A stretch of 64,000 nt of DNA from Escherichia coli (GCA_005400705.1 GCA_005400705.1_4079.1), one strand, 5' to 3'. Numbered from the stretch's first letter, positions 1-41,337 are shown. Numbers and translations are program-made. Notes: generated by a model from the letters alone, not told the origin.

Positions 1-143
1 ATAAGAGCATCTCTATTGACCTGAAGCACGCAATGAAAGCTGAACTCTATGTAGGAGCACTATTGGGGACAAACTATCAACAAATGTATGTAGACCTATG
101 GATTGATGCATTAGTCAAGGAGGTCCAAAGTAAATGCAAATGA
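1..143 (+). CDS. family A small protein (5' truncated at window edge)
   Basis: ORF runs in from window start, stop TGA 141-143; C-terminal LLGTNYQQ motif shared with downstream array. Confidence 0.55.
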   Translation, partial: KSISIDLKHAMKAELYVGALLGTNYQQMYVDLWIDALVKEVQSKCK

Positions 144-352
144 TTAATTTAAGTAAAGATGAATTTTATGTTCTACTGGCGAAAACTTATTCATTACGCA
201 AGGCCGTTTATGATAGTCACATTATTGAACCAACAAAGAAGTTGATTTTAGTATCTGAGATAAAGATGCTTTCAGTCTTAGGAACAAACTACCAAGAGAA
301 TGCTGTACTGTTGTTAATTGATGCCCTCAAGAGAGAGATACAAAGTAAATGA
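134..352 (+). CDS. family A small protein
   Basis: Tiling ORF; motif VLGTNYQEN; ATG overlaps upstream stop (ATGCAAATGA). Confidence 0.65.
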   Translation: MQMINLSKDEFYVLLAKTYSLRKAVYDSHIIEPTKKLILVSEIKMLSVLGTNYQENAVLLLIDALKREIQSK

Positions 353-588
353 TTCATTTATCTTACCATGATTATCAAAAACGTTTAAATGCATCAAGGG
401 ATATAAGAATTCAAATCTTCAATAACAAAAAATTGAAACCTGACACCAGAAGAATCAAAATAATCGAAGCAGAGTTATGCAACTTCCTGGGGACGAACTA
501 TCAGGCAGGTAAGGTAAAAAACTATCTTAGAGAACTCATGAATTGTATCGAAAATAAATGCGATGCTTTGGAGGATAAAAATGATTAA
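349..588 (+). CDS. family A small protein
   Basis: Tiling ORF; motif FLGTNYQAG; ATGA overlap with upstream stop. Confidence 0.65.
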   Translation: MIHLSYHDYQKRLNASRDIRIQIFNNKKLKPDTRRIKIIEAELCNFLGTNYQAGKVKNYLRELMNCIENKCDALEDKND

Positions 589-838
589 TTTAAATTCTGA
601 TGAATATCATGAACGCATGGCTAAAATCTCAACTAAACGAAATGAAATCTATCACAACCCAGAAATTCAACACAGTAAGAAAATGATTATGATGCGTGAG
701 TTAAAGTTGGGTGTATTCTTAGGAACAAACTATCAAGAACCAGAGGTCCAACGCGTATTAAATGAATTACTAATGGAAATCAGAGGTAAGCTTTACTTTC
801 ATCAAATGACCCAACCACTGAGGTGTACTGTGAAATGA
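581..838 (+). CDS. family A small protein
   Basis: Start re-chosen at ATG 581 (GGAGG 570-574, N-terminus MINLNSDEY like other members); motif FLGTNYQEPE. Confidence 0.6.
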   Translation: MINLNSDEYHERMAKISTKRNEIYHNPEIQHSKKMIMMRELKLGVFLGTNYQEPEVQRVLNELLMEIRGKLYFHQMTQPLRCTVK

Positions 839-1050
839 TCAACATCACATTACAAGAAAGATTCATCCGAATCAACTATGCAATTTCCAAATTAGATGCT
901 ACAATAGGATTTCAAAGTCTACCGTTCAAAACCAGAATGATATTAGAGTGCGAAGCCAGGTTAGGTGTACTGTTAGGGACGCAACACCAACAACGATATG
1001 TGGAAATCTGGATTGATCTTTTAACCCAAAATGCACATGAGAGAATGTAA
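835..1050 (+). CDS. family A small protein
   Basis: Start at ATG 835 overlapping upstream TGA (ATGA); motif LLGTQHQQRY. Confidence 0.6.
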   Translation: MINITLQERFIRINYAISKLDATIGFQSLPFKTRMILECEARLGVLLGTQHQQRYVEIWIDLLTQNAHERM

Positions 1051-1281
1051 ATGCAAAATGAAATGATATACTTAACACATGATGAATTTCAAGAGAAGAT
1101 GTTAAAAGCCAATAACATTACTCTTAAGTTCGTTCCAAATCAATCAATATATGAAATGTCTGCGAATGTATTGTTTGAGAAGCTACCATACGTTCTTGGA
1201 ACTGATAAACAAGAATTTATGGTTCAAAATATGATTGAGCATCTTGCAATGAGTATTATGGAAAAAGTAAATGCAAAATGA
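1051..1281 (+). CDS. family A small protein
   Basis: Tiling ORF; motif VLGTDKQEF; N-terminus MQNEMIYLT repeated in next two genes. Confidence 0.65.
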   Translation: MQNEMIYLTHDEFQEKMLKANNITLKFVPNQSIYEMSANVLFEKLPYVLGTDKQEFMVQNMIEHLAMSIMEKVNAK

Positions 1282-1531
1282 AATGAAATACTTAACATAT
1301 AATGAATACGTCGAGAGATTAGTTAGTGCCAAGAGATATGCCAATCAACTTCCTAATGATCCAAACCAAACCCCAGAGGAAAAGAATGCGGAAGCTCTAT
1401 TCCAAGCACTACCATACCTTCTTGGAACTGATAGGCAGGAGTATCACGTTGAACGTATAATTAAATCTCTTAAAATCACTATTAAGGAAAAAGTAAATGC
1501 AAAAGGAAATGATATACTTAACAGACGATGA
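1271..1531 (+). CDS. family A small protein
   Basis: Motif LLGTDRQEYH; N-terminus MQNEMKYLT; start overlaps upstream stop. Confidence 0.65.
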   Translation: MQNEMKYLTYNEYVERLVSAKRYANQLPNDPNQTPEEKNAEALFQALPYLLGTDRQEYHVERIIKSLKITIKEKVNAKGNDILNRR

Positions 1532-1754
1532 GTTAAAAGAACGATTAATTAAATCCAGAAAACTTACAAATCAACTTCCAAACGACACAAACAAGTCACC
1601 TGCCGAAAGGAGTGCAGAAGTTTTATACATTCAACTCATGTACTTTCTTGGAACTGACAGACAAGAGTATTACATTGAAAGTATGCTTCGATATCTTAAA
1701 TTCTCTATAAAGGAAAAGATACATGCTCAAGAATTTAAAAATCCTAACAGCTAA
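1497..1754 (+). CDS. family A small protein
   Basis: Motif FLGTDRQEYY; N-terminus MQKEMIYLT; close paralog of 1271-1531. Confidence 0.65.
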   Translation: MQKEMIYLTDDELKERLIKSRKLTNQLPNDTNKSPAERSAEVLYIQLMYFLGTDRQEYYIESMLRYLKFSIKEKIHAQEFKNPNS

Positions 1755-1980
1755 TGAATATCATAAGATTGTAATGGAAACTAATAGTGCTTACGCTAAA
1801 AAATCAAACCCAAAGTATATACTGGAACACACATTTGAAGAACGTCAATTAGCTCTAGTTGAAGCAAAACTTCTTGCACTATTAGGAACAAACTATCAGG
1901 AAGAATACAATAGAAAACTAATATACCTTTTAACTAAACACATCAGGAAAAGAAAAAAGCATGAAACACTTGACAGATGA
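1723..1980 (+). CDS. family A small protein
   Basis: Motif LLGTNYQEEY; tiling ORF. Confidence 0.65.
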   Translation: MLKNLKILTANEYHKIVMETNSAYAKKSNPKYILEHTFEERQLALVEAKLLALLGTNYQEEYNRKLIYLLTKHIRKRKKHETLDR

Positions 1981-2191
1981 TGAACATGGGCTTATAGTAA
2001 TGGATGTAATCAACATCGAATTCAAAAAGTTGATACGCTACCGTTGTTATGAAGATAAGCAACTCGTTCTAGCAGAACAGAAGTTGTTTCGACTCTTAAA
2101 CACAAACTACCAAGCACAATACGAAGAATCGTATATGTACCTTTTGGCGAGGAAAGCAAAAAGAGATTATGAAAATTTTAAGCCACGATAA
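1961..2191 (+). CDS. family A small protein
   Basis: Motif LLNTNYQAQY; tiling ORF. Confidence 0.6.
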   Translation: MKHLTDDEHGLIVMDVINIEFKKLIRYRCYEDKQLVLAEQKLFRLLNTNYQAQYEESYMYLLARKAKRDYENFKPR

Positions 2192-2384
2192 ACAAACAGA
2201 ATTGTTAATCTTTAATACAAGTAAATTCTTAAACATAACATTGTCTGATATAGATGAGGATGAAAAAGAGTTACTTAGAGCAGATTTAAGAGTTCTTTTA
2301 TATATTGGAACTAACTTCCAAGAGCAATTCGTTGAGGACTACATCGATGAACTTAAAGAATCTGTACTGAGAACATGCAAATGA
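2169..2384 (+). CDS. family A small protein
   Basis: Motif YIGTNFQEQF; tiling ORF. Confidence 0.6.
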   Translation: MKILSHDKQTELLIFNTSKFLNITLSDIDEDEKELLRADLRVLLYIGTNFQEQFVEDYIDELKESVLRTCK

Positions 2385-2626
2385 AAATCCTTTCACCAAG
2401 TGAATACCACGAACTATTAAGTAGTTTAATTCTAAAATTGTATATAGCAAAGACCACAGATTTACCAGATGAAGAAAAAAATATTCTAATGAGTGAAATC
2501 TATGTTAATTCTACCCTAGGGACTAACTATCAAGAATGTAATATTAATGATTACATCAAAGAACTAAAAAGGTTTATCCAATGCAAATGCGAATCATTAC
2601 CGGAGAAGAATACCGAACAATCATAA
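2375..2626 (+). CDS. family A small protein
   Basis: Motif TLGTNYQECN; N-terminus MQMKILS. Confidence 0.65.
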   Translation: MQMKILSPSEYHELLSSLILKLYIAKTTDLPDEEKNILMSEIYVNSTLGTNYQECNINDYIKELKRFIQCKCESLPEKNTEQS

Positions 2627-2823
2627 ATGGACTGTTTTTGAAGTTATTTGCCATTAACACATCAAAACTACCAGATACGGATAAAATTATTAAGTTAAAT
2701 GAAATCTACGTTCAAGCAACTCTAGGAACTAACTATCAAGAAGCCAATGTTTATAATTACATTAATACACTTAAAAGGGTAATACAATTAAAATGCACAG
2801 ACAGCACATACACAAACCCCTAG
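2581..2823 (+). CDS. family A small protein
   Basis: Motif TLGTNYQEAN; close paralog of 2375-2626. Confidence 0.65.
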   Translation: MQMRIITGEEYRTIINGLFLKLFAINTSKLPDTDKIIKLNEIYVQATLGTNYQEANVYNYINTLKRVIQLKCTDSTYTNP

Positions 2824-3023
2824 GAACAGCAGAATACATTGAACTAATGGCAGCAAACTTCTCATCCTTTCAGAAACTGATGCAAGAATCAAATAATGAT
2901 TTAGAATATCATATCAAAAGTTCAGATTTAAGATTGTTACTCACTCTAGGAACAGACAGTCAGTACAAATTCGTACAGGAGCATATTAGAGCACTTTTAA
3001 ATGGCATCAGGAATAAACTATGA
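2793..3023 (+). CDS. family A small protein
   Basis: Motif TLGTDSQYKF; tiling ORF. Confidence 0.6.
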   Translation: MHRQHIHKPLGTAEYIELMAANFSSFQKLMQESNNDLEYHIKSSDLRLLLTLGTDSQYKFVQEHIRALLNGIRNKL

Positions 3024-3235
3024 AGGTAATATCAAACCAAGAGTACTTGGCACTATTCAGAAAAAATAGTCAAGAATTTCTGAATCTTGATACAAGAACT
3101 GATATAAGTGAACTTGAAAAAAATCTTTTGCGTTCAGAGATGATAGTACTGACACTCTTAGGAACACAGCACCAAGAGAGAACTGTTAATTCACACATAG
3201 GGATTCTTATACAGATAGTACAGGAAAAGATATGA
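3020..3235 (+). CDS. family A small protein
   Basis: Motif LLGTQHQERT; ATGA overlap. Confidence 0.65.
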   Translation: MKVISNQEYLALFRKNSQEFLNLDTRTDISELEKNLLRSEMIVLTLLGTQHQERTVNSHIGILIQIVQEKI

Positions 3236-3453
3236 GAATCATAACACAACAAGATATTCTTAAGTTCACAAGGGTTCATGCATCTGAATTTGATGCTATA
3301 TTATCAAAAAGTTACAACAACCCTTATACAGAAGATGTACACTACAGTGAATTATGGGTGTATATACTTTTAGGTACAGATCATCAAGAGCAAGCAGTAC
3401 AGAAGTATTTGTTAGCGTTAAGTACTGCTACTGCTAATGGAGTATGTGTTTAA
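3232..3453 (+). CDS. family A small protein
   Basis: Motif LLGTDHQEQA; ATGA overlap. Confidence 0.65.
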   Translation: MRIITQQDILKFTRVHASEFDAILSKSYNNPYTEDVHYSELWVYILLGTDHQEQAVQKYLLALSTATANGVCV

Positions 3454-3454
3454 T

Positions 3455-3697
3455 ATGAAAGTACTGACAGAATTAGAAATGTATCATAGATTTAATAAGT
3501 ACTATCATTTACTTAAACCTATACAGAGGATTAAGTGTCCCTTTGTAGTGAAACAGGTATTAATTTATGAGCATAAGTTATTTGTATCATTAGGTACGAA
3601 TGAACAAGAGTATTATTTGAAGTTGTACTTAATTACTTTAATTGAATTGATTAATTACAAAACTCAGAAAGCGAAGAAATCTAAAAATGAAAACTAA
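3455..3697 (+). CDS. family A small protein
   Basis: Start re-chosen at ATG 3455 (GGAG upstream, directly after upstream stop); motif SLGTNEQEYY. Confidence 0.6.
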   Translation: MKVLTELEMYHRFNKYYHLLKPIQRIKCPFVVKQVLIYEHKLFVSLGTNEQEYYLKLYLITLIELINYKTQKAKKSKNEN

Positions 3698-4028
3698 AAT
3701 TCAACTCAGGGTATACATATCGTATGAAAATATATACGTTAAAAGTAGTCTATGTAAAGATGTAATGGACTACAAAGGTAAACCATTCACAGTTACTTAC
3801 AGTTTAACAGGAGGTTTATATATCTCTTTTGCTAATTACGAAAATAATATGTACGAACACATTGACATTGAAGATTTAAGTACTTTATCACCAGAGGAAT
3901 ACTTCCAGGAATCATTAGTATGGGATTTAGAGTTCCCTATGCCATTAGTACATAAGATGATAGTACTAATGAAAGAATCTAAACAGGAGCCTAATAGTGC
4001 TTATGAAGAACACATTATTGAGTATTAA
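3687..4028 (+). CDS. family B protein
   Basis: Tiling ORF; core motif EEYFQESLVWD. Confidence 0.65.
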   Translation: MKTKIQLRVYISYENIYVKSSLCKDVMDYKGKPFTVTYSLTGGLYISFANYENNMYEHIDIEDLSTLSPEEYFQESLVWDLEFPMPLVHKMIVLMKESKQEPNSAYEEHIIEY

Positions 4029-4040
4029 GAGTACTGATAT

Positions 4041-4256
4041 ATGAAAAGATTATCATACAAAGATTACAGTAAACTTATCAGTACTTTACAACCAGAAATT
4101 AGAAGAATTAATTATCTTCCTATATCTAACGAAGAACGTGTAGTACTGAAAAATGAGTTAATCTTAAAACGCACAGTAGGTACTAACTATCAAGATAATA
4201 GTGTTCGCGATTTAATTAGAGGGTTAATGATCACAATAAAGGCCAAGTGCTATTGA
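4041..4256 (+). CDS. family A small protein
   Basis: Motif TVGTNYQDNS. Confidence 0.65.
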   Translation: MKRLSYKDYSKLISTLQPEIRRINYLPISNEERVVLKNELILKRTVGTNYQDNSVRDLIRGLMITIKAKCY

Positions 4257-4262
4257 CAGTAC

Positions 4263-4291
4263 TTGACGGAGCTTTTCATTACTGATATAGT
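4263..4291 (+). promoter_or_regulatory. sigma70-like promoter (TTGACG-17-TATAGT, TG-extended)
   Basis: -35 TTGACG 4263-4268, 17-nt spacer, -10 TATAGT 4286-4291 preceded by TG; about 30 nt upstream of ATG 4321. Confidence 0.5.
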
Positions 4292-4320
4292 GCATCAACG
4301 TTAATCATAGGGTACAGATT

Positions 4321-4566
4321 ATGTTAAAATTTTTAAATTTCCTTATCGTCTTGTGTATTGTTCTTGGAATTGCACCGTTTGTATTAGCGTATCTGGATTC
4401 AGATGAAATGCAGAAGATGAATTGCACAAAGACAGGACAGAGTAGAGAAGAGACGGTTATGATGCCTGTAACGGTTATTGTGAATAACATACCAATTACG
4501 AACATGATTCCTACCCTAACGACAACGTACCAGTACTCTTGTGCTGACGGAGAGAGGTGGAGATGA
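4321..4566 (+). CDS. small membrane protein
   Basis: Hydrophobic N-terminus LNFLIVLCIVLGIAPFVLAYL; follows promoter. Confidence 0.55.
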   Translation: MLKFLNFLIVLCIVLGIAPFVLAYLDSDEMQKMNCTKTGQSREETVMMPVTVIVNNIPITNMIPTLTTTYQYSCADGERWR

Positions 4567-4874
4567 AATTTAATATAGCAAAAACATCGAGTATATGTAT
4601 TTTTGGTTATTCCTATGAATTGGGTGATATTGACATTCTATTGTACAAAACGAATGGTGTTATGCATTTCAAGTACCAGGATGAAGAGGCAGACAATTAT
4701 CTTTTACCTAATTTAGTACAAATGCAGGAAGAGGAATTATTCCAGTACAGCTTAATATACGACATTGATATTTGCACGATGCCAGTATTAATTAGTATTC
4801 AAAAAGTGATGCTCGATATGTATGATAAGCTAATACAAGGTATGTCAGGGAGGATCATTGAAATCGATATATAA
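4563..4874 (+). CDS. family B protein
   Basis: ATG 4563 overlapping upstream TGA (ATGA), GGAG-rich upstream; motif EEELFQYSLIYD. Confidence 0.65.
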   Translation: MKFNIAKTSSICIFGYSYELGDIDILLYKTNGVMHFKYQDEEADNYLLPNLVQMQEEELFQYSLIYDIDICTMPVLISIQKVMLDMYDKLIQGMSGRIIEIDI

Positions 4875-5070
4875 GAATTTACCTAATGAATATTTGTTGA
4901 AGTACAAAGAGTTTATTAAAGATGTATATGTAGATCCTTTTAATATCAAATTTGCAGAGTTCGAAGTATCATTTTATCTAGGGACAATAGTACAGGACCA
5001 ATACGTTGATAATCTAATAAGGTGTTTGAAAAAGGAGATACAATGCAGACCCAAATGTACAAAAAAATAA
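4858..5070 (+). CDS. family A small protein
   Basis: Motif YLGTIVQDQY; no in-frame ATG, apparent TTG start so start uncertain. Confidence 0.45.
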   Translation: MKSIYKNLPNEYLLKYKEFIKDVYVDPFNIKFAEFEVSFYLGTIVQDQYVDNLIRCLKKEIQCRPKCTKK

Positions 5071-5306
5071 ACTGTTATTTGTATGCATCAAAGTACAGGG
5101 ATTTTTGTTTACGAGGGGGAGAGGAAGATTTTGCTCTGAGATTATCGGAATTTAATATGTTATTTTATCTTGGTACATCAGTACAAGAAGAAATGGTACA
5201 GAAATTTATCAATCACCTTGTACAAAAAATTAATATGCAAATTTTGATGCTTGAGTTACAGAATGAGATAAACAAATATGAACCCAACAATAGTACAGGA
5301 TCTTAA
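5043..5306 (+). CDS. family A small protein
   Basis: ATG 5043 with AAGGAG 5031-5036; motif YLGTSVQEEM. Confidence 0.6.
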   Translation: MQTQMYKKINCYLYASKYRDFCLRGGEEDFALRLSEFNMLFYLGTSVQEEMVQKFINHLVQKINMQILMLELQNEINKYEPNNSTGS

Positions 5307-5667
5307 ACAAGTAATATTCCTTTTGAATACAAGAAGTGAAATGTATACAGAGTTTAAAGAGATTAATGCATTTTATCAGAATTTTGTAATTCAAGAGTTC
5401 AGTGATTTAATTACAGATGCATTATTTGAATTATCGGAAAAATACAAAGGAACAGAGTTCAGTGTTAAAAATGTATTACGTTCTTTATCAACGCGTATAA
5501 TAAAATTAGATCATTTCAAATTTGAAAATAAAGATTTATTCAGTCACAATCCAAGTACAGCTTTATATTTTATTCCTGATTCAGACAAAAATCATCCTAT
5601 TCATTACGGATGGATTTTGTCGTACATAGTACAAGGAAAGGAGTATCCTATTAAATGGAACGATTAG
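5278..5667 (+). CDS. hypothetical protein
   Basis: Tiling 129-aa ORF; possible degenerate B-like core (NAFYQNFVIQ). Confidence 0.5.
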   Translation: MNPTIVQDLKQVIFLLNTRSEMYTEFKEINAFYQNFVIQEFSDLITDALFELSEKYKGTEFSVKNVLRSLSTRIIKLDHFKFENKDLFSHNPSTALYFIPDSDKNHPIHYGWILSYIVQGKEYPIKWND

Positions 5668-5815
5668 GGCGATTAGATTATTACACAATTAATACAAATT
5701 ATTTGTTGCGTAATATAAAATCCGATTACAAAATATGGATAAAGAACAGAGATAGTATGTGTTATGAATTTTATTTAGATTATGCCATCAAACGCTTTTT
5801 AAGAGAAGAACATTA

Positions 5816-6007
5816 ATGCACACACCGCACAAAGAGCACAAAAATACAAAAACGATAAATGTTTTAAATGATTCTTTATTGGTGAGTATAAATTTATATT
5901 ATAAAATTCATTTAAATGGTGGTATTGAAAATTTTAGTTATTATTTGAGTGCAATATCGCAAGAGCATTTAATATACCAAGATCATTTATTGCACCCGAA
6001 TCCATAA
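5816..6007 (+). CDS. hypothetical small protein
   Basis: 63-aa ORF in AT-rich gap between arrays; no motif, no clear RBS. Confidence 0.25.
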   Translation: MHTPHKEHKNTKTINVLNDSLLVSINLYYKIHLNGGIENFSYYLSAISQEHLIYQDHLLHPNP

Positions 6008-12364: not shown

Positions 12365-12742
12365 ATGGAAATAAAATATAATGAATTTTGTGCAAGGACA
12401 TGGATGTACACTGGTGAGTTAGTTACGCACTCTAACTTATACAAGGGTGATTTAAACTACGCTAGGGACAAGATTTTAAAGTACTGGAATGCTGACTTTT
12501 ATTTGATGGATTTTAGTACTGGGTTTAGGGGTAAAGCAACCGAGATGTTGGACTATACAGTACTTGATGATGCTGCACTGTTTCAGGAGGCATTAGTATT
12601 TGATAAGAAGTACATCTGTACATTAGAAGAGATGATTGAATTACAGCGTAGAATTAAATGTATTCACAGGGAATGTATAGATATCTGGTGCAGTACTGGT
12701 GAAGTTGATTTTTGTAATCATTTCAATCTAGGGGAAGTGTGA
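12365..12742 (+). CDS. family B protein (subfamily B1)
   Basis: ATG 12365 preferred over track start 12254; core DDAALFQEALVFDKKYICTLEE. Confidence 0.65.
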   Translation: MEIKYNEFCARTWMYTGELVTHSNLYKGDLNYARDKILKYWNADFYLMDFSTGFRGKATEMLDYTVLDDAALFQEALVFDKKYICTLEEMIELQRRIKCIHRECIDIWCSTGEVDFCNHFNLGEV

Positions 12743-13098
12743 TGGAATTTGATTTTTTAATATCAGTACATTCTTTTAAGCACAGTTTTCAGTACTTTTG
12801 TAATTTAAACAAAGGTGATTTAATGCACAGTGCGAATGAGTATATTCATTTTACTGATGGTAAATTCTCATTTATTGATTACAGTTCATTAGATTTTCCA
12901 TACACTGATATGCCGGACTATACATTGATGGATGCTGGTGAACTATTTCAAGCTGCATTAGTATTTGACAAGAAGTACATCTGTACATTTGAAGAAGTAA
13001 TTACTATACAAAATGAAATGAAGGTGTATGCATCGTTGAATAAACCTAATGAATGTATTAATCAAGAATACAAATTCAATATAGGAATTCCAAAATGA
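12739..13098 (+). CDS. family B protein (subfamily B1)
   Basis: Core DAGELFQAALVFDKKYICTFEE; ATGA overlap. Confidence 0.7.
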   Translation: MMEFDFLISVHSFKHSFQYFCNLNKGDLMHSANEYIHFTDGKFSFIDYSSLDFPYTDMPDYTLMDAGELFQAALVFDKKYICTFEEVITIQNEMKVYASLNKPNECINQEYKFNIGIPK

Positions 13099-13454
13099 CA
13101 TATGATTATTCTATGTACTATTATAAGTTACCTAAAGGATGGGACTTGTGCTGTAATCTTATTAAGGGAGACTCGGAACATGAGTTGAGTTTATATATGC
13201 ACTACAAAGATTCTTGTTTTAAATTTATTCATGTATTACATGATGGCTATGACTATGAATCTGAGAGTCTTATAGATTATACAGTACTGGACGATGGTGA
13301 ACTATTTCAGGAAGCATTAGTGTTTGATAAGAATAAGTACTCCTGTACATTTGAAGAAATGGTTTCTTTGCAAAATGAAATGAAGAGATTTGAAAAAGAA
13401 AACGTATTTAATCCATCCCCATCAAGAACGAATAATTATTATTTCAATATATGA
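13095..13454 (+). CDS. family B protein (subfamily B1)
   Basis: Core DDGELFQEALVFDKNKYSCTFEE; ATGA overlap. Confidence 0.7.
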   Translation: MTYDYSMYYYKLPKGWDLCCNLIKGDSEHELSLYMHYKDSCFKFIHVLHDGYDYESESLIDYTVLDDGELFQEALVFDKNKYSCTFEEMVSLQNEMKRFEKENVFNPSPSRTNNYYFNI

Positions 13455-13463
13455 GATTATAAA

Positions 13464-13958
13464 ATGACATTACAGAGTTCATTGGAAAAAGCAAAGAAGA
13501 TTCATGAGTACATGAATATGGCAAAAGAAGGTTCAGTTTACGGTGTTTTCAAAGACACAAGTACTCAATATTATGTGCCGGATAACCTCCTTTATAATGA
13601 CTGCTCAGATACAGAAACGTGCGTACTGGATACAGAAACGTGCATACTAGATACCGACCCTAATGATTATGAATGTTTCATTGATATGCATAATGAGTAC
13701 ATGGTCTATATTAATGATGCAGATATTACCATATACAGTACTGACTGCGATTCCGATGACATTATAATTCCGAGTGAAGTACTAGAAGGTCAGTGGGATA
13801 GTGAAGAGTATTACTTCCAACAAAGTACTGTTTACGATGATGAAGTACTTGAAGTATTAGTTATTATGTGGTACTTTAAAAGTATTGGTTCTGGGAACTT
13901 CTATTTCGATTACAGATACGTAACGAAAACTGTAGATAACGGTATTAACAGGGGTTGA
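13464..13958 (+). CDS. family B protein (subfamily B2)
   Basis: N-terminus MTLQSSLEKAKKIHEYM; core WDSEEYYFQQSTVYDDEVLEVLVIMWYFKS. Confidence 0.7.
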   Translation: MTLQSSLEKAKKIHEYMNMAKEGSVYGVFKDTSTQYYVPDNLLYNDCSDTETCVLDTETCILDTDPNDYECFIDMHNEYMVYINDADITIYSTDCDSDDIIIPSEVLEGQWDSEEYYFQQSTVYDDEVLEVLVIMWYFKSIGSGNFYFDYRYVTKTVDNGINRG

Positions 13959-13959
13959 A

Positions 13960-14430
13960 ATGAGTTTAGAAAGAGCATTAGAGATTGCGAAGTTAATTGA
14001 TTTATGCAGCAAAGAAATTGTATCAAATTGTCTCAATGGATATCTATTCAAGGAAGGTAAATCATATTGTCGAATGATATACGATGACAGTAGTGAATAT
14101 ATCCATATGTATGAAGAAAACTTAGATGATTCTGACATAGTACTCACAGGATGTGATGTTAATTTGGAAGATAATTACATGTACTTCTGCCGTGATGCTG
14201 ATATTTTAATCCAAGATTCATTAATTCAAACAGGTGCACCAGAGGTATATCTTCCGTATTCAGTACTGGATAATAACTGGGGTAGTGAAGATTACTATTT
14301 CCAGCAGAGTACTATATATAATGAAGATATACTTGACAAACTTGTTATTTCTTGGTACTTTCATAACACGGATTATAGTAGCTTCTACATAGACTTGGAT
14401 CTACTAAGAGTACTTAAAGAGGATATATGA
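13960..14430 (+). CDS. family B protein (subfamily B2)
   Basis: N-terminus MSLERALEIAK; core EDYYFQQSTIYNED. Confidence 0.7.
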   Translation: MSLERALEIAKLIDLCSKEIVSNCLNGYLFKEGKSYCRMIYDDSSEYIHMYEENLDDSDIVLTGCDVNLEDNYMYFCRDADILIQDSLIQTGAPEVYLPYSVLDNNWGSEDYYFQQSTIYNEDILDKLVISWYFHNTDYSSFYIDLDLLRVLKEDI

Positions 14431-14867
14431 GTTTAGAAAAAGCACTAGAACTAGCCAACAAAATACATCAGTACCATGATAAAATAAAAAGTGGGTTCTA
14501 TGCTGATAAAGTACATGCATATGGGAATGAATATTACCTCACTGGAGTAAAGAGATACTCTAATGATATTTTACTTATGGGTCATGATAAAGACAATAAT
14601 ATACAGTACTCTTCATGTAGTCAATATACTAGTTTTATGGTATATATTCCTGGTACTAAGATTACTTTTGACACATCAAATACACCTGTTGACTTCGGAG
14701 TACTTGATGGCCCGTGGGGTACTGAAGAGTATTACTTCCAACAGAGTCTCATTTTTAACCAAGAAATGCTTGATTCCTTGGTTGTGTTGTGGTACTTTAA
14801 GGAATTGAATTTTGAACCATTCTTTCTTGACTGGGGATCATGTGAGTATTTAATTTCAGGGGAATAA
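14427..14867 (+). CDS. family B protein (subfamily B2)
   Basis: N-terminus MSLEKALELANK; core EEYYFQQSLIFNQE. Confidence 0.7.
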   Translation: MSLEKALELANKIHQYHDKIKSGFYADKVHAYGNEYYLTGVKRYSNDILLMGHDKDNNIQYSSCSQYTSFMVYIPGTKITFDTSNTPVDFGVLDGPWGTEEYYFQQSLIFNQEMLDSLVVLWYFKELNFEPFFLDWGSCEYLISGE

Positions 14868-14869
14868 TA

Positions 14870-15358
14870 ATGTCATTACAAAGTGCATTGAAAGAAGCAA
14901 AGAAAATTCATGAGTACATGATTATGGTACAGGAAGGTTCAGTACCAGGTGTATACAAAACATCAGATACGGAATTCTTCGTTAAGGATAGAGATGATTA
15001 TGACGAATCAGAGGTATGTGCAGAAACATTAGTACTGCACACTGATACTGGTGACAGTGATAACTGTGAATATCATATGTACAACCAGTACATTAGTTAT
15101 TGCCGTAATGAAGATATTACCATCTACAACACAGATAGTGATGCTGATGACACTATCATTCCTTATTCAGTACTGGAAGGTCAGTGGGATAGTGAAGAAT
15201 ATTACTTCCAGAATAGTACTATCTACAATGAAGAAGAACTGGATGTTATTGTGATTATGTGGTATTTCAAAAGTATTGACTCCAGTAGTTTCTATTTTGA
15301 TTATGAATATGTAGAGAATACAGTAGGAGAAGGTAATGTCATTACAAAGTGCTCTTGA
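14870..15358 (+). CDS. family B protein (subfamily B2)
   Basis: N-terminus MSLQSALKEAKKIHEYM; core EEYYFQNSTIYNEE. Confidence 0.7.
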   Translation: MSLQSALKEAKKIHEYMIMVQEGSVPGVYKTSDTEFFVKDRDDYDESEVCAETLVLHTDTGDSDNCEYHMYNQYISYCRNEDITIYNTDSDADDTIIPYSVLEGQWDSEEYYFQNSTIYNEEELDVIVIMWYFKSIDSSSFYFDYEYVENTVGEGNVITKCS

Positions 15359-15788
15359 AAAAGCAAAAGAACTACATGGATACTTTGAAGATATAAAGGC
15401 CGGAAAGTTCAAAGAAGTGTACAAAGCCGAGAACGGTAACTACTACAAAGATGAAATGTATAATAACTCCGTTAGTGTAAGGGTTATTCTTGGGTTGAAT
15501 TCCAATAGTCCTATATCGTTTTCTGAATACAATAGAGATGCAGAATTTATTAGTTATGTTGAAAATGGTAGCATTCGTTTTATTAATAGACAAAAACCAT
15601 TAATTTTGAATTATGAAGTACTGAATGGTCCGTGGAATAGTGAAGAGTATTACTTCCAAAACAGTACTGTATATGATGATGAAGTACTTGAAGCATTAGT
15701 TATTATGTGGTACTTCAAGAGTGTTAGCTGTCCTCGATTTTATTTGGATTTCGAAGATCTTCGTAAAGATCCAGAAGGTATAGAATGA
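15336..15788 (+). CDS. family B protein (subfamily B2)
   Basis: N-terminus MSLQSALEKAKELH; core EEYYFQNSTVYDDEVLEALVIMWYFKS. Confidence 0.7.
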   Translation: MSLQSALEKAKELHGYFEDIKAGKFKEVYKAENGNYYKDEMYNNSVSVRVILGLNSNSPISFSEYNRDAEFISYVENGSIRFINRQKPLILNYEVLNGPWNSEEYYFQNSTVYDDEVLEALVIMWYFKSVSCPRFYLDFEDLRKDPEGIE

Positions 15789-16099
15789 AAAACTTATTCA
15801 GTGTTCAGTACGTTCCTGGTGAAATTGGTTTATTGTATCTATTTGACCATGATAATTCATTATTACTAGTAGTGAAGAAATGCCAAGCTAGTTCGTTTGT
15901 TGAATACATTCACGATAGTGAATACATTCCTGATTTCCTAGAGTGTGATTATCACGATGAACATGAATCATTTATTTTTCAGGAATCACTCGTTTGGAAT
16001 AAGTCTATTAACTTCTTTACGTTAATTGAATTACAAAAGCAGGTGAAGTATCATTGGGATTACTTAATTACACAGGATTACATTGAGATAGAAATATAA
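15785..16099 (+). CDS. family B protein
   Basis: Core ESFIFQESLVWN; ATGA overlap. Confidence 0.65.
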   Translation: MKNLFSVQYVPGEIGLLYLFDHDNSLLLVVKKCQASSFVEYIHDSEYIPDFLECDYHDEHESFIFQESLVWNKSINFFTLIELQKQVKYHWDYLITQDYIEIEI

Positions 16100-16407
16100 T
16101 GACTAAAAATGAATTTGATTCACTTTGTACGGTTTATAATTCATTGACAGAAATACCTGACTTTATTAATTACATTTCAGCTTTAAATCAAATTATGCAT
16201 AGTTTTGAACAATCGTTTGAAGAGAAATATGCAGGTAGAAAAGTTCTATGTCATATGTCAATGTACTTGGGAGATGGTGAGCCTTACACTACCAGTACTA
16301 CATGTGAAATAAAAAAATATAATATATTATTGGGGACAATAGAATTCAAGGTATCCAATGGTGGTAGTTATATGTACTTTAGAGATGGAGTGGTTGAATT
16401 ATTATGA
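16099..16407 (+). CDS. family D-like small protein
   Basis: Motif EEKYAGRKVLCHMSMY; tiling ORF. Confidence 0.55.
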   Translation: MTKNEFDSLCTVYNSLTEIPDFINYISALNQIMHSFEQSFEEKYAGRKVLCHMSMYLGDGEPYTTSTTCEIKKYNILLGTIEFKVSNGGSYMYFRDGVVELL

Positions 16408-16853
16408 GTTACGAAAGTGCAATCAAGAAAGCAAATGATATTCTAAAAGTTGTTAAGTTCTTCAAAGAAAATCCTGAATACTTAGCTGATGAAAACCATG
16501 ATCACGATGAGAGATTGAGACGAAAAATTGTTTCTTTATTTGACACTAATGCAGATAATTATAGTCTAATTGAGTTAGCATACGATTATATTTCATTGAA
16601 CCGAAACGGAAATTTAGTTAATATAGAAAGACATGAGAGTGAAGAATCTTTTAAAATTTCAGACATTTTATCCCTGAGTACTGAAGAAGGGTACTTCCAG
16701 GGTAGTACTGTTTATGAACAAGGAACACTTGACAATCTATGCACATTCAGTGTAATATATCAGAAATCAGTACTGGATGTATTTTATCTTGACACTGCTG
16801 AACTGGATACACTAACCAATTTTGTTACTACTGAAGAGGCCACATTCGAGTGA
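16404..16853 (+). CDS. family B protein
   Basis: Core EEGYFQGSTVYE. Confidence 0.65.
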   Translation: MSYESAIKKANDILKVVKFFKENPEYLADENHDHDERLRRKIVSLFDTNADNYSLIELAYDYISLNRNGNLVNIERHESEESFKISDILSLSTEEGYFQGSTVYEQGTLDNLCTFSVIYQKSVLDVFYLDTAELDTLTNFVTTEEATFE

Positions 16854-17386
16854 TGAAAGTTAACATCAATGACTTTGATGCATTACAAGATTTATCAAAA
16901 AAGATTCGTATCATCGTACCAGTACTAAAAAAATGCAGTACTGGTTTAATTGATCCTAGTACTGTTGTTAATGAGAAGTACAATTTTCATCGTGTATTAC
17001 AGGGTACAGGTGCATTTCAGAAGTGTGATGTACGTGAGAAACACGTAATTGATACATCATTGTTTTCTATTGGTGCACCTGTGTCGAATAATTCTATTTT
17101 CTTGGATAACGCAGGAAATATTCAACAATTAACATTTAAGAAAAGGAAAAAGAACAATAACATTGGTGTGTACGCGATGAAGTGGGGGCAACCTGATTTG
17201 AAGCGTGAAATTCACATCCCTAAGTACAATTACAATGCATTTGACGAACAGTGTTTTCAACTATCGTGTACTGACCCTGACTATGCAATCATTCAGTTCT
17301 ATATGGAATTGCAGATAGCATTTAATAGTAATTTGTATATTAACTTATTGGCGATGAACATCGATGAAGTATTCAAAAACATTTAA
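16850..17386 (+). CDS. family B protein
   Basis: Core DEQCFQLSCTD. Confidence 0.6.
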   Translation: MMKVNINDFDALQDLSKKIRIIVPVLKKCSTGLIDPSTVVNEKYNFHRVLQGTGAFQKCDVREKHVIDTSLFSIGAPVSNNSIFLDNAGNIQQLTFKKRKKNNNIGVYAMKWGQPDLKREIHIPKYNYNAFDEQCFQLSCTDPDYAIIQFYMELQIAFNSNLYINLLAMNIDEVFKNI

Positions 17387-17582
17387 TCGAATTGAATACA
17401 TGAGAACTGTGAGTGCAGTGTGGGATATATGGTTCACTACTAAACCAAAAATGGATTACCATGACTTTAAGCTATTGTTCTTCATTGGCTCTAACAAACA
17501 GGATGTTGCAATGAAGGGTTATATTCAGCACTTACAGGAACTAATACAGAAGAGGGTTAATGAAAATAATAGACCAAGATGA
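17364..17582 (+). CDS. family A-like small protein
   Basis: Motif FIGSNKQDVA; start could instead be ATG 17400. Confidence 0.5.
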   Translation: MKYSKTFNRIEYMRTVSAVWDIWFTTKPKMDYHDFKLLFFIGSNKQDVAMKGYIQHLQELIQKRVNENNRPR

Positions 17583-17751
17583 TATTGCTAAACTATTCAA
17601 TATATATTCTACTAGAATGATGCAAACAGACTCATATAGTACTGAATTCAAAGAGTTGAAAGTACTGATGTACTTGGGAACCCAATATCAGGAACAAGTT
17701 ATTTTGGAATATATTAATTCGTTGAAGAAGGATATCCGTTATGTACGATGA
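17560..17751 (+). CDS. family A small protein
   Basis: Motif YLGTQYQEQV; isolated inside the B array. Confidence 0.6.
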   Translation: MKIIDQDDIAKLFNIYSTRMMQTDSYSTEFKELKVLMYLGTQYQEQVILEYINSLKKDIRYVR

Positions 17752-18301
17752 TTTAGATCTTGCGTTTGAACGTATGGTAATTTTAATGCAATGTGCAGAA
17801 ATGCATGAAACAATCCGTCGCACCAAAGGGATTGAATATACAAGTAAACTATTCTCATACGAAAGTCGTCGAGGGATGGATCATTTTTACTGCACTGATT
17901 GTTCAAAGTTTTCAGTACTGAAATATTATCATCCTACTGTTTCCAATAATAGTTTAATATCCACATATGATGGTGATCTGTTTAGTGTAATGTATGACAC
18001 ATTACATCCATCAATTTCAATCTATAAAGATTGCGATAGTAGTTTATCGTATATAATTGAAGATTACTTATCTCCTAATACTGAAGAGAATATTTTTCAG
18101 AACAGTGTGTTGCATGATGAATTAAGTATAAAATGCATCTATATGTTCAATAAGTTAAAAGAGTACGCCGATAATAATTACTTCATTGATGATTTAGCGG
18201 TATTGTCTGTTTCCGTTTTTAATACAAATGATATTGATATGAAATACTATAATGAGATTTGTAAAGTACATCATATGTATAAGGAACTATTATGTCAATA
18301 A
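17741..18301 (+). CDS. family B protein
   Basis: Core EENIFQNSVLHD. Confidence 0.65.
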   Translation: MYDDLDLAFERMVILMQCAEMHETIRRTKGIEYTSKLFSYESRRGMDHFYCTDCSKFSVLKYYHPTVSNNSLISTYDGDLFSVMYDTLHPSISIYKDCDSSLSYIIEDYLSPNTEENIFQNSVLHDELSIKCIYMFNKLKEYADNNYFIDDLAVLSVSVFNTNDIDMKYYNEICKVHHMYKELLCQ

Positions 18302-18894
18302 ATGCAAATAAATGTTGTAGTGCAAATGTGCATTTGTTTTTTAAGAAATTAGCAAATGATATTATATATATGCAGGAAATGATTTATCACAAACGAGCGG
18401 ATTTAGAAAAAGCATTAGTACAGTTCTCATTTATGCTTGATGGTGATATATTTCTAGAGAGTGATGCATTGCGAATAGTATTAGACAAAAATGCTAAAAG
18501 ATTTTTATTTCATATAGATAATAAATTATGTTCCTCCGTATGTCGTACTTTTTATAATCGTGATTCGGACTTATATCAATTCCTTTATTCCAAAGGTGCA
18601 GTAGAAGCATCATATGGTGATGGTTATGCCCTAGGAAAGAGTATTCCATTTATGAAATCATTTAAAATAGAACACATCAGTACTGATGAAGATGCAATGT
18701 TCACAAATGATATAACTATGGGACGTGAAGATGCAATGCGATATATTACAAATTCTATGCATACATTCTTTCAACGAACAGAATTTGATAATGTATATAT
18801 ATCAAATGTAAATATTTTCAATGACCTGTGTCAGTACTTGAGAAGTGTTTGTGACTTCGATGAAAGTTATTGTAAGCTATACACTGAGGTATAA
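18292..18894 (+). CDS. hypothetical protein (degenerate family B-like)
   Basis: 200-aa tiling ORF; weak core DAMFTNDIT. Confidence 0.5.
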   Translation: MSINANKCCSANVHLFFKKLANDIIYMQEMIYHKRADLEKALVQFSFMLDGDIFLESDALRIVLDKNAKRFLFHIDNKLCSSVCRTFYNRDSDLYQFLYSKGAVEASYGDGYALGKSIPFMKSFKIEHISTDEDAMFTNDITMGREDAMRYITNSMHTFFQRTEFDNVYISNVNIFNDLCQYLRSVCDFDESYCKLYTEV

Positions 18895-18899
18895 AACAA

Positions 18900-19262
18900 A
18901 TGAACACATTAAGTATTACATACTATACAACTAAAAAATTAGTTACTTGTTTAATATCTTTGAAGACAAACCATGATGATATGTTTGATATGGCTGCATA
19001 TGAATTAGAATTATCAGAAGATGGCTTCAAGAGCTATGAATTATATAGCTATGTCCGTGAAGATGTAATTGACACTACACTAATGCAAGAGGATGAGTTA
19101 TTCCAAGAAAGTTTAGTATGGGATAATAAGTACGATTGTAACTTTGATTTCTTATGTTTAATCCAGAAAGAAATGAAAAGAATCTTTGATAATTATCCAA
19201 TCAAACGTTTCAGTACTGCACCTGAGCAATATAAAAGGATTATATTCACCTATGAAGATTGA
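18900..19262 (+). CDS. family B protein
   Basis: Core EDELFQESLVWDNKY. Confidence 0.65.
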   Translation: MNTLSITYYTTKKLVTCLISLKTNHDDMFDMAAYELELSEDGFKSYELYSYVREDVIDTTLMQEDELFQESLVWDNKYDCNFDFLCLIQKEMKRIFDNYPIKRFSTAPEQYKRIIFTYED

Positions 19263-19629
19263 ATTTGAAGTTATTACATATAGTATAGGTGATGGTATCC
19301 GTTGCTATGTACAAGCAAGGCATATGGTTCCTGATGATAAACTGTCACCCAAAAGCTTCTGTATCACACAAGATCTCTTAGATATCAACGGAGAGTACAA
19401 GTACATATATTATCTTACTAAGGGTTATTGTAGTACACGTGGTTTTAATATTGTAGCTGTTTCTAGAGATGAAATTGATGATTTAACTGAGTACGGGGAA
19501 GAAGAGATGTTCCAGTACAGTACTGTTTTTAATGAACTGGATGTGTTTCTGTTACGAAAAATACAACACATTATGCAAAAATGTTTGCATCATAAGAGAG
19601 GTATTGTATGCGACGTGAATCTGAATTAG
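19252..19629 (+). CDS. family B protein
   Basis: ATG 19252 overlapping upstream end; core EEEMFQYSTVFN. Confidence 0.6.
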   Translation: MKIEFEVITYSIGDGIRCYVQARHMVPDDKLSPKSFCITQDLLDINGEYKYIYYLTKGYCSTRGFNIVAVSRDEIDDLTEYGEEEMFQYSTVFNELDVFLLRKIQHIMQKCLHHKRGIVCDVNLN

Positions 19630-38753: not shown

Positions 38754-39029
38754 ATGAATTATAAAGTTCTACAATATACATACAGTGTTTTGTTTGATTT
38801 ACATCACAATGGAAGATATCTCAATACAATACGAGAAAACACATTCACTCATACTATCTGGATTAATCACTTAATAATGATACGTGAATATTTTGTTAAT
38901 AGTGAGATAATCATTCGTGGTAAAAAACAGAAGATAGAACAAGTTAATAGTTTTGGTGGTAAATTAGTACTATCATTTATAGATAGTAATACTAATGAAA
39001 GATATAGTATAGATTTGGTGGACATATGA
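38754..39029 (+). CDS. family C small protein
   Basis: N-terminus MNYKVLQYTYSVLFDL. Confidence 0.6.
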   Translation: MNYKVLQYTYSVLFDLHHNGRYLNTIRENTFTHTIWINHLIMIREYFVNSEIIIRGKKQKIEQVNSFGGKLVLSFIDSNTNERYSIDLVDI

Positions 39030-39292
39030 ATTATAAAGATTTCCTACTAACATACAAGATTATTCGAGATTTAGCACACGACAATGATAGCCCTAGTCTA
39101 GAAGACACATGCACTGAAATGATTCATACAATTCGTGGTAAGATTAAAAAAAAATTCAGTACTGTTATTATTGGTGATGACCATGCAGAATTTTCTGATA
39201 TAATCATTAGACGTGATGGTAAAGTTGAGGTTCAGTACTACACTGATTTTGGATTTACCAGTATTCCGTTGGAGATATTCCCTTGGGATTAA
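39026..39292 (+). CDS. family C small protein
   Basis: N-terminus MNYKDFLLTYKIIRDL; ATGA overlap. Confidence 0.6.
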   Translation: MNYKDFLLTYKIIRDLAHDNDSPSLEDTCTEMIHTIRGKIKKKFSTVIIGDDHAEFSDIIIRRDGKVEVQYYTDFGFTSIPLEIFPWD

Positions 39293-39594
39293 ATTTAAAT
39301 GATATACAATTCACTTATAAGATCCTATATGATTTGTATGATTTATACCTTGTTAGTAACAAAATAGGTTCACATAACTCATCCAAAGAACAACCATTTA
39401 TTGATTTATATATTGAGTACTTAGATTCAGTAGGTGAATATATAAAAAAGAATTACAGTACTTTTAACGATGGAAATGATATATTCGAGTTCTCTGGAGT
39501 TAAATCATACAATGGGATTATCCATGTTGAATTTCTTGAAATAACCGATAGGGGATTTATCGAGATTAAAGTTGTGAAGTTGGTGAATTTATAA
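39283..39594 (+). CDS. family C small protein
   Basis: LNDIQFTYKILYDLYD; apparent TTG start after GGAG. Confidence 0.5.
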   Translation: MGLNLNDIQFTYKILYDLYDLYLVSNKIGSHNSSKEQPFIDLYIEYLDSVGEYIKKNYSTFNDGNDIFEFSGVKSYNGIIHVEFLEITDRGFIEIKVVKLVNL

Positions 39595-39604
39595 GAGGTT
39601 ACAT

Positions 39605-39916
39605 ATGTTATTAAATGATATACAATTCACATACAAATTTTTGTATATCCAATACGCTACGGTTGATGCTGGAGAATATCTCTACGGTGAAATCTATCGT
39701 TCGGTATGGATAAAGTTTTTGGATGAATTACATGAATATTACCATGATTTGTGTATAGTTCGTGATAATAAAATATACAAATTCCGCGATATTGTTAGTC
39801 ATAGCGGTAAGCTACGATTGGAATTAAGTACTGATAGTGATGTTGATTGGATTGGTGTAAATTTACTGGAGTTGGAGAATGAAAAACAACTTAAAGGAAA
39901 TACAAGTATTTTATAA
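39605..39916 (+). CDS. family C small protein
   Basis: N-terminus MLLNDIQFTYKFLYIQY; RBS GAGG. Confidence 0.6.
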   Translation: MLLNDIQFTYKFLYIQYATVDAGEYLYGEIYRSVWIKFLDELHEYYHDLCIVRDNKIYKFRDIVSHSGKLRLELSTDSDVDWIGVNLLELENEKQLKGNTSIL

Positions 39917-40163
39917 ATTCTTATACTTGTCATATGTAAAAGATGAGTACTATGAAAGTGTGTATTATTTTTTATGGCAACATTACCGTACTATAGTAAG
40001 AGATTTATATATAGGAAAATCTATCATATCCAATGGTGAAAAATGTATATGTACTGATGTTGTTAGTTTTAATGGTTCTTTAACACTGTGTTTCAGATGC
40101 GATAATAATAGTGGGTCATTTTCATTAAACGTATATCAGTTAGAAGGAATAAATTTTGAATAA
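39879..40163 (+). CDS. family C small protein
   Basis: EIQVFYKFLYLSY. Confidence 0.55.
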   Translation: MKNNLKEIQVFYKFLYLSYVKDEYYESVYYFLWQHYRTIVRDLYIGKSIISNGEKCICTDVVSFNGSLTLCFRCDNNSGSFSLNVYQLEGINFE

Positions 40164-40899: not shown

Positions 40900-41072
40900 G
40901 AACAGTATTTTTTATCTGGAGTCTTTTTTCATTGGCAGTACTGACAGTATGTGGGATTTGTTTCCTTTCATCAATTAATACTTGGTATATCAATTTACTA
41001 TTTCCATTTGTCTGTGTTGGTTTAGGGTTTACTTTGCATAGTGTATGTAAGGATTACAATGAGAACAAATGA
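40896..41072 (+). CDS. small membrane protein (58 aa, absent from ORF track)
   Basis: ATG 40896 in ATGA overlap with upstream stop; two hydrophobic segments (FFIWSLFSLAVLTVCGICFL, LLFPFVCVGLGF). Confidence 0.45.
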   Translation: MRTVFFIWSLFSLAVLTVCGICFLSSINTWYINLLFPFVCVGLGFTLHSVCKDYNENK

Positions 41073-41337
41073 AGTACTTATTGCTGAAACAATGAAGATG
41101 ATTTACAATATCACGTCAGCACAGAATATGCCCTATCCAACTAAGTCTTTATTGAGGACTGTGTATCTGGGGATAGTACAGGAGTACTACAAATCCAAGC
41201 ACCGAAGCATTATTAGTGTTTATCGTGATTATGAAAGGATTCGTATTTTATTCTGGAACAAGAATCGAGTACGTTCTGAATGTGACCTAGTGGACTTTAA
41301 ATTAGAGAATCTTTATTGCTATAAACAGGGACAATAG
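41059..41337 (+). CDS. family A-like small protein
   Basis: ATG 41059 after AAGGA; motif YLGIVQEYY. Confidence 0.5.
   Translation: MRTNEVLIAETMKMIYNITSAQNMPYPTKSLLRTVYLGIVQEYYKSKHRSIISVYRDYERIRILFWNKNRVRSECDLVDFKLENLYCYKQGQ

Follow-up and report, generated by a model that had tools for sequence, protein, structure and literature searches.

What does a bacteriophage gain from some thirty tandem copies of one tiny gene? The question is raised by the left end of a 64,000-nucleotide (nt) stretch of DNA filed under Escherichia coli (GCA_005400705.1; the whole stretch is referred to here as the window), which begins with a dense run of short + strand open reading frames (ORFs) of one family, here called family A, that carry the motif (L/I/V)-G-T-x-x-Q. 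We find that the array belongs to a jumbo phage, that it lies just inside a long direct terminal repeat (DTR), and that it is made of deeply diverged, individually maintained genes. From position, architecture, and evolutionary pattern we suggest, with a probability of about one half, that it encodes a set of non-redundant early effectors that bind host proteins and serve in takeover or counter-defence.

A hidden Markov model (HMM) was built from 19 copies and searched against the 908 six-frame ORFs of the window. It recovered 22 family A copies, comprising 19 full-length ORFs of 63 to 94 amino acids (aa) in 134-5306 (E values of 7e-21 to 2e-28), one edge fragment, and two dispersed copies (Table 1). 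The fragment matches the end of the profile only, and therefore the left edge of the window cuts the array. A preliminary description of this locus had listed about 20 consecutive copies; the number holds, as 19 full-length genes and a fragment, but not all are consecutive, with three non-member genes lying inside the run. The dispersed copies that it placed at 17364-17751 are recovered by the HMM, but not the one at 41059-41337; the corresponding ORF, 41041-41337, had no match at E<=10 when the window was scanned and reached only E=26 (0.9 bits) once filters were off, leaving a count of 22 copies rather than 23. Nearly all gene junctions overlap or abut, as first described: with the conserved Met taken as the start (likely true starts lie at 140, 581, 835, 1063, 1283, 1509, 2381, 2587, and 3455), seven overlap as ATGA, and gaps of at least 12 nt occur at just three. 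The recurring junction sequence is also real, with three matches against 0.04 expected by chance, and marks a local triplet of genes (1051/1271/1497, region 1051-1754) that share 47-50% aa identity and, as repeat family D3, 70-74% nt identity over 81 nt.

Table 1. Family A genes, intervening genes, and sequence signals (window coordinates unless another genome is named)
Feature	Position	Strand	Basis or remark
Family A C-terminal fragment, 46 aa (...LLGTNYQQ...)	3-143	+	HMM match 3-140, E 2.5e-14, profile positions 29-73; frame-3 translation
16 consecutive family A genes	134-3697	+	HMM E 1e-22 to 2e-28; phrog_4148 matches; overlaps; orthologs with dN/dS ~0.3
Family A genes 1-8 (longest ORFs)	134-352, 349-588, 563-838, 823-1050, 1051-1281, 1271-1531, 1497-1754, 1723-1980	+	
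Family A genes 9-16 (longest ORFs)	1961-2191, 2169-2384, 2375-2626, 2581-2823, 2793-3023, 3020-3235, 3232-3453, 3437-3697	+	
Non-member "family B" gene, paralog of 4557-4874	3687-4028	+	No family A HMM match; phrog_13866 E 2.7e-7
Family A copy	4041-4256	+	HMM E 6.5e-23; among 7 relatives present only in fEgEco12 and Turkey3
Non-member gene, hydrophobic N-terminus	4321-4566	+	phrog_8826; no family A HMM match
Non-member "family B" gene	4557-4874	+	phrog_13866 E 1.6e-37; no family A HMM match
Last two tandem family A copies	4858-5070, 5022-5306 (likely start 5043)	+	HMM E 7e-21, 1e-23
Two dispersed family A copies	17364-17582, 17560-17751	+	HMM matches 17358-17579 (E 4.4e-7), 17545-17748 (E 8.4e-12)
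Junction repeat GTAAATGCAAAATGAAATGA	1047-1066, 1267-1286, 1493-1512 (last with 1 mismatch)	+	3 matches vs 0.04 expected by chance
Array-head promoter-like site TTGACT-N16-TATTAT with GGAG ribosome-binding site	array head, fEgEco12	+	Consensus match
Promoter-like TTGACA-N17-TATAGT (11/12)	1970-1998	+	Inside gene 1961-2191; counterpart at fEgEco12 25535
Promoter-like TTGACG-N17-TATAGT with upstream TG	4263-4291	+	In the array's only sizeable spacer (64 nt); equivalent at fEgEco12 28520

Positions 1-6000 of the window match 36 phage records at 85-93% nt identity, all of them from jumbo phages of the Asteriusvirus type that infect E. coli or Salmonella, with record lengths of ~310-386 kb (slurp01, PBECO4, 121Q, phAPEC6, and fEgEco12 among them), and the genes under these matches are all annotated as hypothetical protein. 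Because none of the 36 records is identical to the window, the matches assign it to a further member of the Asteriusvirus jumbo coliphages (the PBECO4/121Q group). The array is larger than first described. In slurp01 the block begins ~2.6 kb upstream of the point equivalent to window base 1 and holds ~31-32 copies by HMM, with two more family A copies ~13 kb downstream of the block, in the same arrangement as in the window; the dispersed copies occupy an equivalent relative place in slurp01 (L001:38882/39069) and fEgEco12 (L002:42358/42551).

The best-mapped relative is fEgEco12, for which a 20,993-bp DTR has been described, with restriction digests reported as confirming it (PMC13070987); we found bases 1-20,993 to be 100% identical to the right genome end. 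The first array gene of fEgEco12 begins at 21,091, 98 bp past the DTR boundary on the genome-interior side, and no family A copy was found in the right-end 30 kb. This DTR-adjacent position, mapped in fEgEco12 and carried over by synteny to the window's own phage, places in the window roughly the distal two-thirds of an array that adjoins the left DTR on its inner side. The array is also compositionally distinct, with an AT skew of 0.17-0.21 and a GC skew of 0.03-0.04 over window 1-4000 compared with about -0.04 to 0.10 and 0.07-0.24, respectively, in the rest of the window. We note that in fEgEco12 another tandem array, made up of 17 tiny genes (46-75 aa; PP777464.1 348835-353438), sits immediately upstream of the right DTR. 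At least 14 of the 17 are linked by BLASTP into two sub-families; the array bears no relation to family A and does not occur in the window. Both inner DTR boundaries of fEgEco12 are therefore flanked by tiny-paralog arrays.

Family A is found outside Asteriusvirus as well. When 1.84 billion cluster representatives were searched exhaustively with the HMM, 98 proteins were returned, all of 52-102 aa apart from a 269-aa protein of phage UB (P0163; L009:10118-10927), in which a family A domain is joined to a C-terminal part of ~200 aa; this part resembles no recognisable family, and such a domain is absent from the window. Ten of the 98 matches had their sources checked, and these were Asteriusvirus phages, E. 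coli assemblies, metagenome or read-archive contigs, and one Klebsiella phage record. The protein in the Klebsiella record is a true member by sequence and is present in the RaK2-like jumbo phages K64-1 and KP13-7; a 51.8-kb record named phiKp_21 carries the same gene as KP13-7, and probably represents part of a jumbo phage of this kind. KP13-7 (Alcyoneusvirus) has ~7 family A relatives (L013:12001-22472), loosely clustered and separated by spacers, two of them longer (117 and 125 aa). In another Klebsiella phage, fENko-Kae01, which represents a third lineage, a scan of 26 kb over the DTR boundary found no family A copy; after the DTR come first homologs of the window's ~155-aa family (13.4 kb) and then genes syntenic with window 27-36 kb. 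Because KP13-7 has ~7 spaced copies and fENko-Kae01 none in the region scanned, these comparisons indicate that family A is older than the genus and that the ~30-copy block is an Asteriusvirus-specific expansion between the DTR and conserved early genes. The block shows the marks of a terminus-proximal multigene family, namely tandem paralogs, DTR neighbourhood, copy-number variation, and expansion relative to sister lineages.

The paralogs in the window have a mean aa identity of 31% and a maximum of 50%; the triplet 1051/1271/1497 and the pair 2375/2581 are the only closer relatives among them, and adjacent copies resemble each other hardly more than distant copies do (permutation p=0.04). 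Each copy nonetheless has a same-position ortholog in other phages at 84-99% nt identity, and the ratio of nonsynonymous to synonymous substitution rates (dN/dS), pooled against seven phages, is 0.27-0.37, slightly above that of non-family neighbours (0.25-0.27). Divergent copies that each have their own constrained ortholog are therefore real, individually maintained, and not interchangeable, which counts against a role in dosage and likewise against a recent "accordion" amplification. Recent adaptive amplification of the gene accordion type requires near-identical copies, and was rejected on these identities. The preliminary description had offered dosage or diversification as the strategy behind the array, and the low identity among paralogs, their wide range of charge, and the positional orthologs speak for diversification.

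The size of the tandem block is not constant among related phages, a comparison that the preliminary description had proposed: there are ~31-32 copies in slurp01, ~30 in PBECO4, 30 in Turkey3, 29 each in fEgEco12 and UB, ~26 in SD-1_S14, and 24 in 121Q (CMSTMSU, whose assembly is full of frameshifts, was left out of the counts). All copies have intact reading frames in every good-quality genome and paralog order is conserved across the phages, with six units missing from at least one of seven relatives; unit 1051-1281 is present, among the relatives compared, only in slurp01 and Turkey3. A chimeric unit at fEgEco12 24835, 121Q 7785, and UB 6045 has a 5' part nearest the 1497 unit (78-90%) and a 3' part nearest the 1271 unit (88-96%). 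These sequence patterns support inter-unit recombination as a process that reshapes the array, atop ancient duplications. The unequal-crossover duplication first proposed thus survives in part: a copy number of 24 to ~32, the gain and loss of units, and the chimeric unit agree with it, but most of the duplications are ancient and the junction repeat marks one triplet only.

The copies are predicted to share a compact fold. An AlphaFold2 model of copy 2375-2626, for which the 21 window copies served as the alignment, is a small helical fold with a mean predicted local distance difference test score (pLDDT) of 94.2 and a predicted template modelling score (pTM) of 0.78; the predicted helices span residues 8-17, 19-27, 32-46, and 53-73, the tail past 73 being of low confidence, and residue 4 forms a predicted bridge with the LGT threonine at position 50. 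Across the 21 aligned copies two residues, Q53 and L64, never vary, G49 and T50 are almost invariant, and the N-terminal consensus is MK-x-L-x-x-x-EY. From the model we infer that the LGT-x-x-QE motif is a fold-determining turn, which would pair with the N-terminal M-K-x-L strand and open the last helix, rather than a catalytic or binding site. A natural two-copy fusion (P0001; metagenome scaffold L012:371-835), an in-frame join of the orthologs of 1723-1980 and 1961-2191, gave a model with pLDDT of 68 and pTM of 0.47, in which the first domain has the same architecture and there is no confident inter-domain packing, the second domain being almost without alignment. Outside the shared core the copies differ greatly, with isoelectric points (pI) of 4.6-9.9 and net charges of -6.4 to +6.9; the basic C-terminus reported in the preliminary description is accordingly not general. 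The number of Cys residues is 0-3, and these are not conserved.

Family A corresponds to phrog_4148 (PHROGs v4), whose annotated function is unknown. Six of seven tested copies match this profile at E values of 4.6e-14 to 3.9e-26 over profile positions 1-70/74, and 5022-5306 matches partially (E 1.2e-4). Searches of other collections were negative: Pfam gave sub-threshold chance matches only, NCBIfam scattered single-member matches only, and PADLOC scattered single-member matches at E>=5e-4 with no characterised anti-defence or defence homolog, and the best E value in a profile search of PDB sequences was 1.3. Hha/YmoA-like, colicin-immunity-like, and helix-turn-helix (HTH) identities, all considered from sequence pattern, were dropped, as none appeared in profile or fold searches. 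What the preliminary description had named as the finding that would count against it, a known structural or DNA-binding domain whose copy number stays constant in related phages, is thus not what we see: neither a domain nor a fold match was obtained, and the count varies.

The promoter-like site at the head of the array in fEgEco12 is followed by ~6-8 kb of nearly spacer-free genes. The site (TTGACT-N16-TA(T/A)(T/A)AT) is conserved in seven of the nine phages aligned, and in PBECO4, where the upstream sequence at the head differs, TTGACA-N17-TATGAT is present yet. Only two further good sites (11/12) lie within the array, both listed in Table 1. The neighbouring DTR of fEgEco12 is richer, in that its 12-20 kb portion (12781-19238) holds eight perfect TTGACA-N16/17-TATAAT sites on the + strand, each in a ~90-bp spacer before a small gene, where well under one would be expected by chance on a rough base-composition estimate. 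In the related Rak2-like phage CBB, an early host-takeover region with short ORFs and RpoD-like promoters has been proposed beside the terminal repeat (PMC5259590).

Two other features of these regions may be regulatory. Three identical hairpins with 12-bp stems, AAAGGGATTGACTCCGGTCAGTCCCTTT, occur in the fEgEco12 DTR (13489-13516, 16758-16785, and 19510-19537), and each embeds a -35-like TTGACT that is followed by TATTAT, such that the hairpin could be a combined terminator/promoter or a regulated promoter; a relative with an 8-bp stem, AATCCCTTGACT...AAGGGATT, lies ~140 nt upstream of the array head. Within the array, unit 1961-2191, which has LNT in place of LGT, is the most conserved at the nt level, with 97-99% identity in six of seven phages and a pooled dS of 0.033 compared with 0.1-0.5 for other units. 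This could reflect an embedded regulatory element or a recent sweep.

A plausible mode of action can be put together from these observations. Host sigma-70 RNA polymerase would start at the head promoter soon after DNA entry, as it might at the perfect-consensus promoters of the DTR, and would yield one long polycistronic mRNA on which ribosomes re-initiate at the overlapping stop and start codons; the overlaps are observed, and translational coupling is what they suggest. Each cistron would give a small helical protein on the shared scaffold, held together by the conserved motif, with the (N/D)-x-Q-E residues predicted to open the last helix and the M-K-x-L strand to pair with the L-G-T turn. 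The surfaces appear almost fully diverged, with each paralog under purifying selection at its own position, and the copies may therefore be non-redundant binders of different partners. Homologous recombination would add, delete, and shuffle units, leaving each phage with a strain-specific repertoire.

Several points weigh against this proposal. Neither profile nor fold searches show homology or fold similarity to any known takeover or anti-defence protein. A dN/dS of ~0.33 is moderate constraint only. The promoter calls are consensus matches, and promoter-like sites overall are not in excess (88 compared with 88.2 in shuffles), with only the perfect matches standing out; we found no transcriptome for any Asteriusvirus in the literature. 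In the Salmonella phage SD-1_S14 a ~100-nt segment with the head promoter is deleted (around L007:5228-5396), and the first array gene directly follows DTR-type sequence; either transcription of this array would have to come from read-through, or the 310-kb assembly is flawed. The tight coupling of ~30 cistrons would be equally compatible with subunits of one assembly. A bolder version of the proposal, which we regard as unlikely, would make the array a phage "library" of ~30 binders on one minimal helical scaffold of previously undescribed fold, each with its own host defence effector or toxin variant to neutralise; as a single immediate-early operon continually reshuffled by recombination, it would set host range through its content, and it would be the bacterial-virus counterpart of the terminal multigene families of African swine fever virus (ASFV) and poxviruses.

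The alternative that survives best, though less probable again, is that the ~30 translationally coupled paralogs, produced at comparable levels, are subunits of a single hetero-oligomeric assembly, such as an intracellular scaffold or filament that serves during infection. The near-universal stop/start overlap and single head promoter are what would be expected of such a complex, and the copies have a common hydrophobic core and fold and a paralog order conserved across phages; but units are dispensable, with 24 to ~32 copies and different ones missing in each phage, which fits a fixed stoichiometry poorly, none of the phAPEC6 array proteins was found in the virion, and the two-copy fusion was modelled without confident inter-domain packing, although at a pTM of 0.47 this is a weak test. 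Next comes the possibility that these small proteins bind DNA or modulate transcription, as HTH-like or nucleoid-associated factors, and that the family expanded so as to recognise many sites. We give this a low probability, even though basic copies (pI 8.7-9.9) make up about half of the set, the spacing around LGT-x-x-QE superficially recalls an HTH, and Iyer et al. (PMC7824862) suggest a transcription factor or DNA-binding role for an expansion in phage G; neither an HTH profile match nor an HTH fold with a short recognition helix was found for family A.

Lower still stands the view that the array is largely neutral filler, duplications tolerated by the spare capacity of the jumbo capsid. 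Tandem duplication has been proposed as a route of genome expansion in jumbo phages (Hua et al., PMC5646251), units can be lost, and dN/dS is higher in the array (0.33-0.36) than in neighbouring genes (0.25-0.27). This view is nevertheless hard to square with the intact frames in all good-quality genomes, with dN/dS values well below 1, and with fold-determining residues kept over ~30 deeply diverged paralogs. Dosage amplification, in which equivalent copies raise the amount of one product, is very improbable; many tandem copies in strain-variable number would suit it, but it is largely refuted by the divergence, in that the copies are ~31% identical (maximum 50%), differ widely in charge, show no sign of homogenisation, and each keep a conserved ortholog, and a strong promoter would be a far cheaper route. 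Least probable of all is that these small, polymorphic proteins with a conserved N-terminus are packaged in the virion and ejected with the DNA, like the polymorphic internal proteins of T4, given that, although phAPEC6 has a capsid inner body (PMC7247149), the 62 proteins identified in its virions by mass spectrometry include none of the array products gp462c-gp489c, the list jumping from gp347 to gp549 (PMC7247149; the method was gel-based and easily misses small proteins, yet one of 4.7 kDa was seen in the same proteome), that the conserved N-terminus lies inside the folded core in the model, and that the sigma-70 promoter context suggests expression early in infection, not late.

The window also holds other tandem paralog families, with eight genes of 146-164 aa (13464-16853, 21032, and 22266), five paralogs of 113-125 aa (12365-13454, 18900, and 19608), three of 91-103 aa (38754-40163), and a paralog pair at 6016/6834.

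The sequences of family A are already public in dozens of genomes, where they are clustered as a PHROG and annotated as hypothetical only, and the finding is a descriptive one. The block illustrates how jumbo-phage genomes grow, through old tandem duplications and the later divergence of the copies. Should the copies prove to be non-redundant early effectors, one 8-kb block would offer ~30 natural variants of a minimal, confidently modelled scaffold whose targets could be mapped in parallel, a compact resource for host-takeover or anti-defence functions; the natural copy-number variation over more than 30 sequenced relatives provides a ready comparison for host-range studies.

The array is not mentioned in the Asteriusvirus genome papers examined, and the PHROGs cluster phrog_4148, which is the same family, gives no function, structure, copy-number, or positional information. 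The nearest parallel is in the Bacillus jumbo phage G, where a zinc-ribbon protein has undergone a lineage-specific expansion to ~35 copies (Iyer et al. 2021, PMC7824862). Both are jumbo phages with ~30 copies of one small protein, read as tandem duplication, but family A is helical and without conserved zinc ligands. Hua et al. 2017 (PMC5646251) remark on "very similar" genes in 121Q that they do not name, a description that does not fit family A, with 24 copies in 121Q and paralogs at 31% identity. Their remark may refer to another array. Lineage-specific expansions of this kind are in any case already known in jumbo phages.

Among better-studied phages, the terminal redundancy of SPO1 reportedly holds a host-takeover gene block, as described by Stewart and colleagues in 1998, and the pre-early genes of T5 lie in its first-step-transfer DTR. 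The likeness consists of many tiny ORFs without a recognised fold at or beside a long DTR and strong host-type promoters, as in the eight perfect sites of fEgEco12; the genes of SPO1 and T5, however, are unrelated to one another and have their own promoters, whereas here one family is repeated ~30 times in a spacer-less block just outside the repeat. Arrays of diverged immunity-protein paralogs in bacterial polymorphic-toxin loci, which Zhang and colleagues are said to have described in 2012, offer a looser analogy. These too are tandem, small, diverged paralogs on a common scaffold, thought to broaden binding, but family A has no immunity-family match or adjacent toxin genes, and its context is a phage. 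Large eukaryotic DNA viruses have terminal multigene families, such as MGF110, MGF360, and MGF505 of ASFV and the host-range families of poxviruses, and poxvirus "gene accordions" were reportedly described by Elde and colleagues in 2012. The accordion differs in that family A copies are ancient and not near-identical. With the terminal families the array shares tandem paralogs near genome ends, strain-variable number, recombinational gain and loss, and diverged copies; there is no homology, the family A proteins are much smaller, the host is bacterial, and it is a link to host range or immune evasion that defines the eukaryotic virus families.

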